From IMG/VR virus record IMGVR_UViG_3300009285_008166: a DNA stretch of 13,925 bases. One strand, given 5' to 3'. Shown piece by piece: positions 3,282-3,315 of the stretch. Numbering within the stretch: the first letter of the stretch is position 1; the number at the start of each line of letters is the position of its first letter. The notes under the pieces are model-generated. The model was given only the letters and a program-made list of their open reading frames with translations, was not told the origin of the DNA and searched no databases. The stretch comes from a virus. The translations under genes and the position numbers were made by a program.

Positions 3282-3315
3282 CTTGTAGCACGAACAAAGC
3301 GCGCTTGTCAAGCGC
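3282..3315 (-). promoter_or_regulatory. Candidate sigma70-like promoter for the MVP-like gene. -35 TTGACA is at 3311..3306, followed by an 18-nt spacer and -10 TACAAG at 3287..3282. A perfect 15-bp palindrome GCGCTTGACAAGCGC at 3301-3315 is centred on the -35 and is a candidate operator.
   Basis: Minus-strand reading: GCGCTTGACAAGCGCgctttgttcgtgcTACAAGagtccaacaaacgtGGAGGtttccaATG. Confidence 0.4.

Follow-up and report, generated by a model that had tools for sequence, protein, structure and literature searches.

A palindrome on the -35 element of a candidate promoter upstream of a vault protein-like gene in a phage-like element

A perfect 15-bp palindrome covers the -35 hexamer upstream of a major vault protein (MVP)-like gene, and is tentatively read here as an operator on the probable sigma-70-type extended -10 promoter of a self-contained MVP transcription unit, a reading that is the likeliest of those weighed and whose likelihood falls a little short of even. 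The elements concerned lie within the window, i.e. the whole 13.9-kb stretch of viral DNA that was analysed, and are the following.

3769..3434, minus strand: RHH-type gene, 111 aa, with an N-terminal strand-helix-helix and a helical C-terminal domain
3315..3301, minus strand: 15-bp dyad GCGCTTGACAAGCGC (GCGCTTG-A-CAAGCGC), candidate operator, read directly
3311..3306, minus strand: -35 hexamer TTGACA, 6/6 positions
3290..3282, minus strand: TGC-TACAAG, extended -10 TG plus weak -10 hexamer, recovered by a relaxed scan and not by a strict one
3267..3263, minus strand: Shine-Dalgarno sequence GGAGG, 6 nt before the MVP ATG
3256..530, minus strand: MVP-like gene, 908 aa, ATG at 3256, Pfam MVP_shoulder (4.2e-22) and Vault_3 (6.2e-11)
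2035..2045: recurrence of the dyad core (GCTTGGCAAGC) within the MVP gene at codons ~404-408
455..506, minus strand: strong intrinsic terminator closing the MVP unit, a long G+C stem followed by UUUUUU

The palindrome and the candidate promoter

The first-pass annotation had described a perfect 15-bp palindrome with TTGACA within it and TACAAG 18 nt further on, and direct reading of the sequence found coordinates, hexamers and spacing all exact. The dyad (3301-3315; plus strand GCGCTTGTCAAGCGC) consists of 7-bp arms, GCGCTTG and CAAGCGC, around a central A, is centred on the -35 hexamer of the candidate promoter and occurs as a 15-mer only once in the window. It had also been placed immediately downstream of the RHH gene; it does lie downstream, but 118 nt (3433..3316) separate the RHH stop from the dyad, a stretch filled by a conserved leader and a 9-nt tandem array. 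The full 177-nt gap from the RHH stop to the MVP ATG contains, in this order, the leader, the array, the palindrome, TGC-TACAAG and GGAGG. The sequence of the palindrome region was recovered identically in independent assemblies of two samples from one groundwater project, so the palindrome is no assembly artefact. No close relative of the region was found in any of the collections searched (phage, plasmid, IMG/VR, metagenome and genome).

The spacer between the two hexamers (TTGACA at 3311..3306, TACAAG at 3287..3282) is exactly 18 nt, and the TG of the extended -10 is supplied by the TGC (3290..3288) that precedes TACAAG. This last hexamer matches TATAAT at 3/6 positions, with a G at position 6 and the final T absent. 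Set beside a sigma-70 extended -10 promoter, the site has the -35 element, a spacer within 16-18 nt and the TG, and departs from it in the -10 hexamer. A strict consensus scan called no promoter anywhere in the window, since the -10 elements of the window are of the TAnnnn type. On the coding strand TTGACA occurs only twice, both times in intergenic DNA, and the relaxed pattern TTGAC.-N16-18-TA.... has four matches, three of them in the intergenic part, which amounts to 11% of the window. These three sites, at 12639, 6846 and 3311, each lie just upstream of a gene. Given this concentration of TTGAC sites in intergenic DNA, the MVP promoter that had been proposed at TTGACA/TACAAG is plausible as a sigma-70-like promoter, and the gene probably does have its promoter at the palindrome site. 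Judging from the layout of these elements, transcription would start at about position 3275.

Short inverted repeats also accompany the other two promoter-like sites. The third site, TTGACG-N17-TAGAGA (6820-6850), has its own repeat, TTGAC-N6-GTCAA (6846), over the -35, and the one near 12639 has CGCC-N9-GGCG at 12633. The latter site, TTGACA-N17-TAGTCT (12605-12640), ends 6 nt before the ATG at 12604 and would give a leaderless mRNA; at 9700-9745 of a locus that encodes a homologue of the RHH protein (L081), TTGACT-N17-TACTCT stands 7 nt before an ATG. Both stretches contain TTGACNCGCCGG, suggesting homologous early promoters in two related elements. The recurrence of TACAAG was also examined, in the leaders and at 4533, and the 4533 copy proved to be merely a Tyr-Lys codon pair.

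The MVP gene as a presumed captured unit

The closest relatives of the MVP-like protein (46-48% identity) are encoded in Myxococcota-type chromosomal loci, next to a gene for a SUFU-domain protein. Weaker matches (36-37% identity) occur in the huge-phage records LR756500, LR756501 and LR756503, and no MVP relative was found in IMG/VR. MVPs have been reported in phages (bioRxiv 10.1101/2023.11.10.566534).

The GC3 of the MVP gene (0.81) is the highest in the window, the other genes ranging from 0.61 to 0.75 with the RHH gene at 0.625. The terminator at its end folds at -40.1 kcal/mol (z -4.03), and 0/200 shuffled sequences fold as well. A second hairpin, with 10-bp arms, is located past it at 433-455. 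On account of its own candidate promoter, its strong terminator, the highest GC3 and its Myxococcota-type relatives, the MVP gene is read as a captured moron-like unit. Its anatomy thus suggests a horizontally acquired, self-contained transcription unit within a phage-like element.

The surrounding genes and the leader-array elements

All credible genes of the window, which has a G+C content of 62%, are on the minus strand with short gaps between them. Phage-like accessory functions include an RNA ligase (phrog_548), a deoxynucleoside kinase, AAA ATPases and a DarG-like macrodomain. Repeat elements, each made up of a leader and an array, are interspersed with the genes.

6865-7665: deoxynucleoside kinase gene
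5079-5957: RNA ligase gene
4025-4489: 154-aa protein with a DarG macrodomain match (PADLOC, E 1.1e-16; phrog_335)
136..1 (cut by the contig end), 3437..3316 and 5082..4921, minus strand: three paralogous leader-plus-array elements
3437..3315, minus strand: leader (ATGACCGCCGCCGTACAAGCCGCGTCGACG) plus A-free 9-nt/6-nt array, with a possible 40-codon mini-ORF

The DarG-like protein (4025-4489) may be the product of an anti-DarT counter-defence gene; this gene is in the same operon as the RHH gene and near those of the RNA ligase and the deoxynucleoside kinase. No near-identical DNA to the window region was detected in phage or plasmid collections, and no syntenic relative of the window was found. 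In several assemblies, contigs (L077, L078 and L001) terminate within an array or beside one, as does the window, whose left end falls in the third array. Short-read assembly breaks at the arrays, and the complete element extends beyond the window.

Each leader-array element begins exactly at the stop codon of a gene (ATGA, ATGA and GTGA), and a 26-nt leader, TGACCGNCGCNNTACRAGCYGCGTCG, is common to the three (3 matches, 0 expected). The arrays are A-free and G-rich, with 9- and 6-nt units, essentially (GTC/GGC/GTG/GCG)n. The element at 3437 has a 30-nt leader, whose ATG overlaps the TGA of the RHH gene, and ~90 nt of the repeats GTCGTGGGC and GTCGGC; the G of the TAG that ends its possible 40-codon mini-ORF is also the base with which the dyad begins. 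Peptides read in the ATG frame are Ser/Ala/Trp-rich and of 40 and 53 aa (MTAAVQAAST...SWASRASSASWASAT, followed by the stop, and MTAAIQAAST...), and the second mini-ORF, that of 53 aa, stops 3 nt before the ATG of the next gene. The elements may be mini-ORFs of this composition, their translation coupled to that of the preceding gene.

Codon scores are 0.1-0.35 per codon in the ATG frame, 0.5-0.74 in the Val/Gly frame and negative in the frame of the upstream gene, and are not decisive, since the arrays are essentially (GKC)n and period 3 is intrinsic to them. For the same reason, array indels in multiples of 3 were rejected as proof of coding. A conserved RNA structure of the arrays was likewise rejected (z -1.67, +0.76 and -3.39, with no consistent signal), as was read-through or recoding of TGA fusing the RHH gene, the array and the MVP gene, which have a common frame: long conserved genes have no in-frame TGA. 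The codon scores of the read-through frame (-0.5 to -0.76 per codon) resemble those of an off-frame. Searches for known RNA families and tRNAs gave nothing credible, and no homologues of the mini-ORF peptide were found in the protein collection. The leader motif has no match in viral contigs or in genome contigs, and in metagenome contigs there are 17 single chance matches, all without arrays. No array follows the stop codon in the nearest relative of the RNA ligase gene (L089, 65% identity); the leader-array elements are therefore taken to be lineage-specific insertions.

Arrays of the 9-nt unit GGGCGTCG in IMG/VR were rejected as instances of the same element, being mostly coding repeats of the other strand, with a possible exception in two contigs (L037 and L039). 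Here, at 3430-4440 of L037 (IMGVR_UViG_3300048768_000063) and in L039, at least five tandem modules GGAGGCTGCC-ATGACTCGCG..., each with an A-free (TCG TGG GCG)n array, are flanked on one side by a DUF6745 gene and on the other by the genes for a small membrane peptide and an SLT transglycosylase. Every module forms an ORF (MTRAVPKHQRSSW...AWRLP, then a stop) that ends at the TGA of the next ATGA, and the last ATG starts the 32-aa membrane peptide just upstream of the transglycosylase gene. The frame relation from ATG to repeat is the same as in the elements of the window. By analogy, high-G+C phages might harbour a class of A-free repeat mini-ORFs coupled through ATGA, to which both would belong, the relation between the window and these two contigs being only a possible one. 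In any case, the leader-array elements are a more unusual feature than the palindrome.

The RHH protein and its relation to the palindrome

The 111-aa protein is not recognised by Pfam, and in PHROGs its residues 8-47 match phrog_4738, annotated as 'transcriptional repressor' (E 3.6e-5). An exhaustive HMMER search recovered only two real homologues, P0123 and P0125, with ~35% identity; searches of viral and genome collections added no further relatives. With a profile of the three sequences, the top two solved structures were the RHH domain of NikR (E 0.004) and ArtA (E 0.033), both aligned on the strand-helix-helix segment. The AF2 single-sequence model (pLDDT 81) predicts helices at residues 16-24 and 35-50, followed by a three-helix C-terminal domain. 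Foldseek with the RHH monomer model was uninformative, as would be expected since RHH is an obligate-dimer fold. Given the phrog_4738 and NikR/ArtA matches, the assignment of 3434..3769 to the RHH proteins in the first-pass annotation is credible.

In the L081 locus (9741-10303) there is, ahead of the RHH homologue, an ORF of 69 codons that had not been called and whose N-terminus is RHH-like. The GTG at 9947, overlapping the TGA of that ORF (GTGA), is the probable true start of the homologue; with this start, P0125 as called is N-terminally truncated.

The same annotation had the MVP gene under dedicated control of the adjacent RHH protein, a claim without comparative support, as homologues of the two never co-occur. 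The two loci of RHH homologues (L080 and L081) are other contexts, without MVP and without the dyad, and the closest MVP loci (L087 and L088) have neither an RHH neighbour nor the dyad, their upstream regions being unrelated. Neither the dyad nor its core is found in the window upstream of the RHH gene's own operon, and a leader-array element stands between the RHH gene and the dyad. Since the homologues never occur together and the operon offers no second site, it is adjacency that pairs this RHH protein with the palindrome. The window offers no other DNA-binding candidate, and the RHH fold suits a site of this kind, the link being one of proximity. Thus, of the marks of an RHH repressor and its operator, the fold and a dyad over the core promoter are present, and co-travel in relatives is absent. 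One observation favours the pairing: at the promoter of the homologue's operon in L081 (TTGACT-N17-TACTCT), an inverted repeat GGCG-N7-CGCC brackets the -35 just as GCGC-N7-GCGC does in the window. This is one instance only (P ~0.01-0.02). That the dyad would be the operator of this particular RHH protein is doubtful.

Weighing the explanations

If the dyad is an operator, a DNA-binding protein with two-fold symmetry would, once bound there, cover the -35 and switch the promoter off, and the internal copy of the core, 1.27 kb downstream of the palindrome, could act as an auxiliary site. The promoter could instead be constitutive, with a real -35, GCGC flanks owed to chance or to the G+C-rich context, and no regulator. 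The window has 17 palindrome matches (~13 distinct) whose arms reach 7 bp or more with loops of at most 3 nt, roughly twice the 7.4 +/- 3.0 of dinucleotide shuffles, and since such palindromes are common in DNA of this G+C content the bare palindrome is not remarkable. TTGACA itself supplies part of the symmetry (TTG.CA), and the unrelated short inverted repeats at the other two promoter-like sites (6846 and 12633) indicate that such repeats are easy to find. Against this, once TTGACA is given, the extra A and the four further complementary pairs have P ~9e-4 at intergenic base composition, and a chance origin of the dyad on the -35 is unlikely. Also, the 10-base core GCTTGNCAAGC has two matches in the window, both in the MVP unit, with 0.03 expected and 0/200 shuffles reaching two; this statistic was defined after the match had been seen, and therefore provides modest support only. 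The internal copy has 11/15 dyad bases in common and encodes ELAKR, in a stretch that is poorly conserved in the protein alignment. An argument from rare codons for this copy was rejected, as CTT accounts for 13 of the 61 Leu codons of the MVP gene. On this evidence a constitutive promoter is rather unlikely, while the dyad could well be an operator for some protein, even if this is not the probable case. The operator reading of the first-pass annotation is thereby retained in part: the dyad on the -35 is non-random and its core recurs once, and what is given up is the RHH protein as its dedicated binder.

Two further explanations dispense with an operator. The MVP gene could be co-transcribed with the upstream operon, TTGACA/TACAAG being a chance look-alike and the palindrome, if functional at all, serving for example as a site coupled to translation of the repeat mini-ORF. 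The weak -10 and 18-nt spacer, the short gaps between genes on one strand and the overlap of the mini-ORF stop TAG with the edge of the dyad all agree with it; but the strong concentration of TTGAC-type sites in intergenic DNA, together with the MVP gene's own Shine-Dalgarno sequence, terminator and foreign composition, makes it improbable. Alternatively, the palindrome hairpin could close the RHH operon and insulate the MVP gene, either as a weak intrinsic terminator, which the first-pass annotation had also considered, or as an RNA stability element. The hairpin is indeed positioned where the upstream operon ends, the stop codon of the possible mini-ORF closes on the first base of the dyad, and a simple terminator scan lists the structure (stem of 6 bp, loop of 3 nt, tail GCTTTGTTCG). 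However, the hairpin and its flanks fold no better than shuffled sequence (-11.4 kcal/mol, z -0.39; 59/200 shuffles fold as well), and terminator-like matches are about as frequent in the window (18) as in shuffles (17.1). The tail GCUUUGUUCG passes a lax scan, but its U tract is interrupted, where the far stronger terminator 2.8 kb downstream, after the MVP gene (-40.1 kcal/mol, z -4.0), has an uninterrupted U6. These observations leave the terminator very improbable.

The reading of the palindrome as an operator on the MVP promoter would, if the dyad works as such, mean that the phage has its captured vault gene under on/off control and not under passive expression. It would show when in infection or lysogeny a vault-like shell, bacterial or viral, is made, and promoter and repressor would provide a simple handle with which to express and study this shell. 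An operator on a promoter is a conventional device, and the adjoining repeat elements, like the tandem modules of L037 and L039, are less conventional. More speculatively, and with little likelihood, the dyad and its internal copy could be the operator of an undescribed, tiny RHH family, through which a phage would have dedicated control of a vault-shell gene taken from a Myxococcota-like host; with the mini-ORF translationally coupled to the RHH gene and its stop codon sharing a base with the dyad, access to the MVP promoter would be tied physically to translation of the mini-ORF and to production of the RHH protein.

Comparison with known systems

RHH repressors such as CopG, Arc/Mnt, MetJ and NikR act via dyad or tandem sites that overlap core promoter elements. 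CopG (RepA) of plasmid pMV158 binds a 13-bp pseudosymmetric element on the -35 of the promoter Pcr and autoregulates its own operon, repressing it by occlusion of RNA polymerase. As in the arrangement described here, a small RHH protein is accompanied by a short dyad that includes the -35. However, the CopG site lies upstream of its own gene, whereas the present site is downstream of the RHH gene and on the promoter of another gene. Between CopG and the 111-aa protein no sequence relation is detectable beyond the fold, and the latter is a candidate binder only.

Dimers and tetramers of RHH proteins (Arc/Mnt of P22 at Pant, MetJ at met boxes, NikR at its operator) read dyad or tandem 8-9-bp subsites, and the 8-bp centre-to-centre spacing of the arms here resembles that of adjacent met boxes. 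Unlike Arc/Mnt, MetJ and NikR, the 111-aa protein carries a helical C-terminal domain that is not related to theirs, and its family comprises only three known clusters and has no known operator.

The recurrence of the dyad core inside the MVP coding sequence is reminiscent of lac O2, an auxiliary operator located inside the gene that it regulates, at a distance of 401 bp. For the internal copy, a candidate auxiliary site, the distance is 1.27 kb and only 11/15 bases are in common.

Finally, phage morons are extra genes lodged among the phage genes, each with a promoter and a terminator of its own, e.g. in lambdoid phages such as HK97. The MVP unit resembles them in being a single gene between a promoter-like site and a strong terminator, in having a composition unlike that of its neighbours and in having its nearest homologues in bacterial chromosomes, and differs from morons generally in that an MVP-like cargo is unusual.
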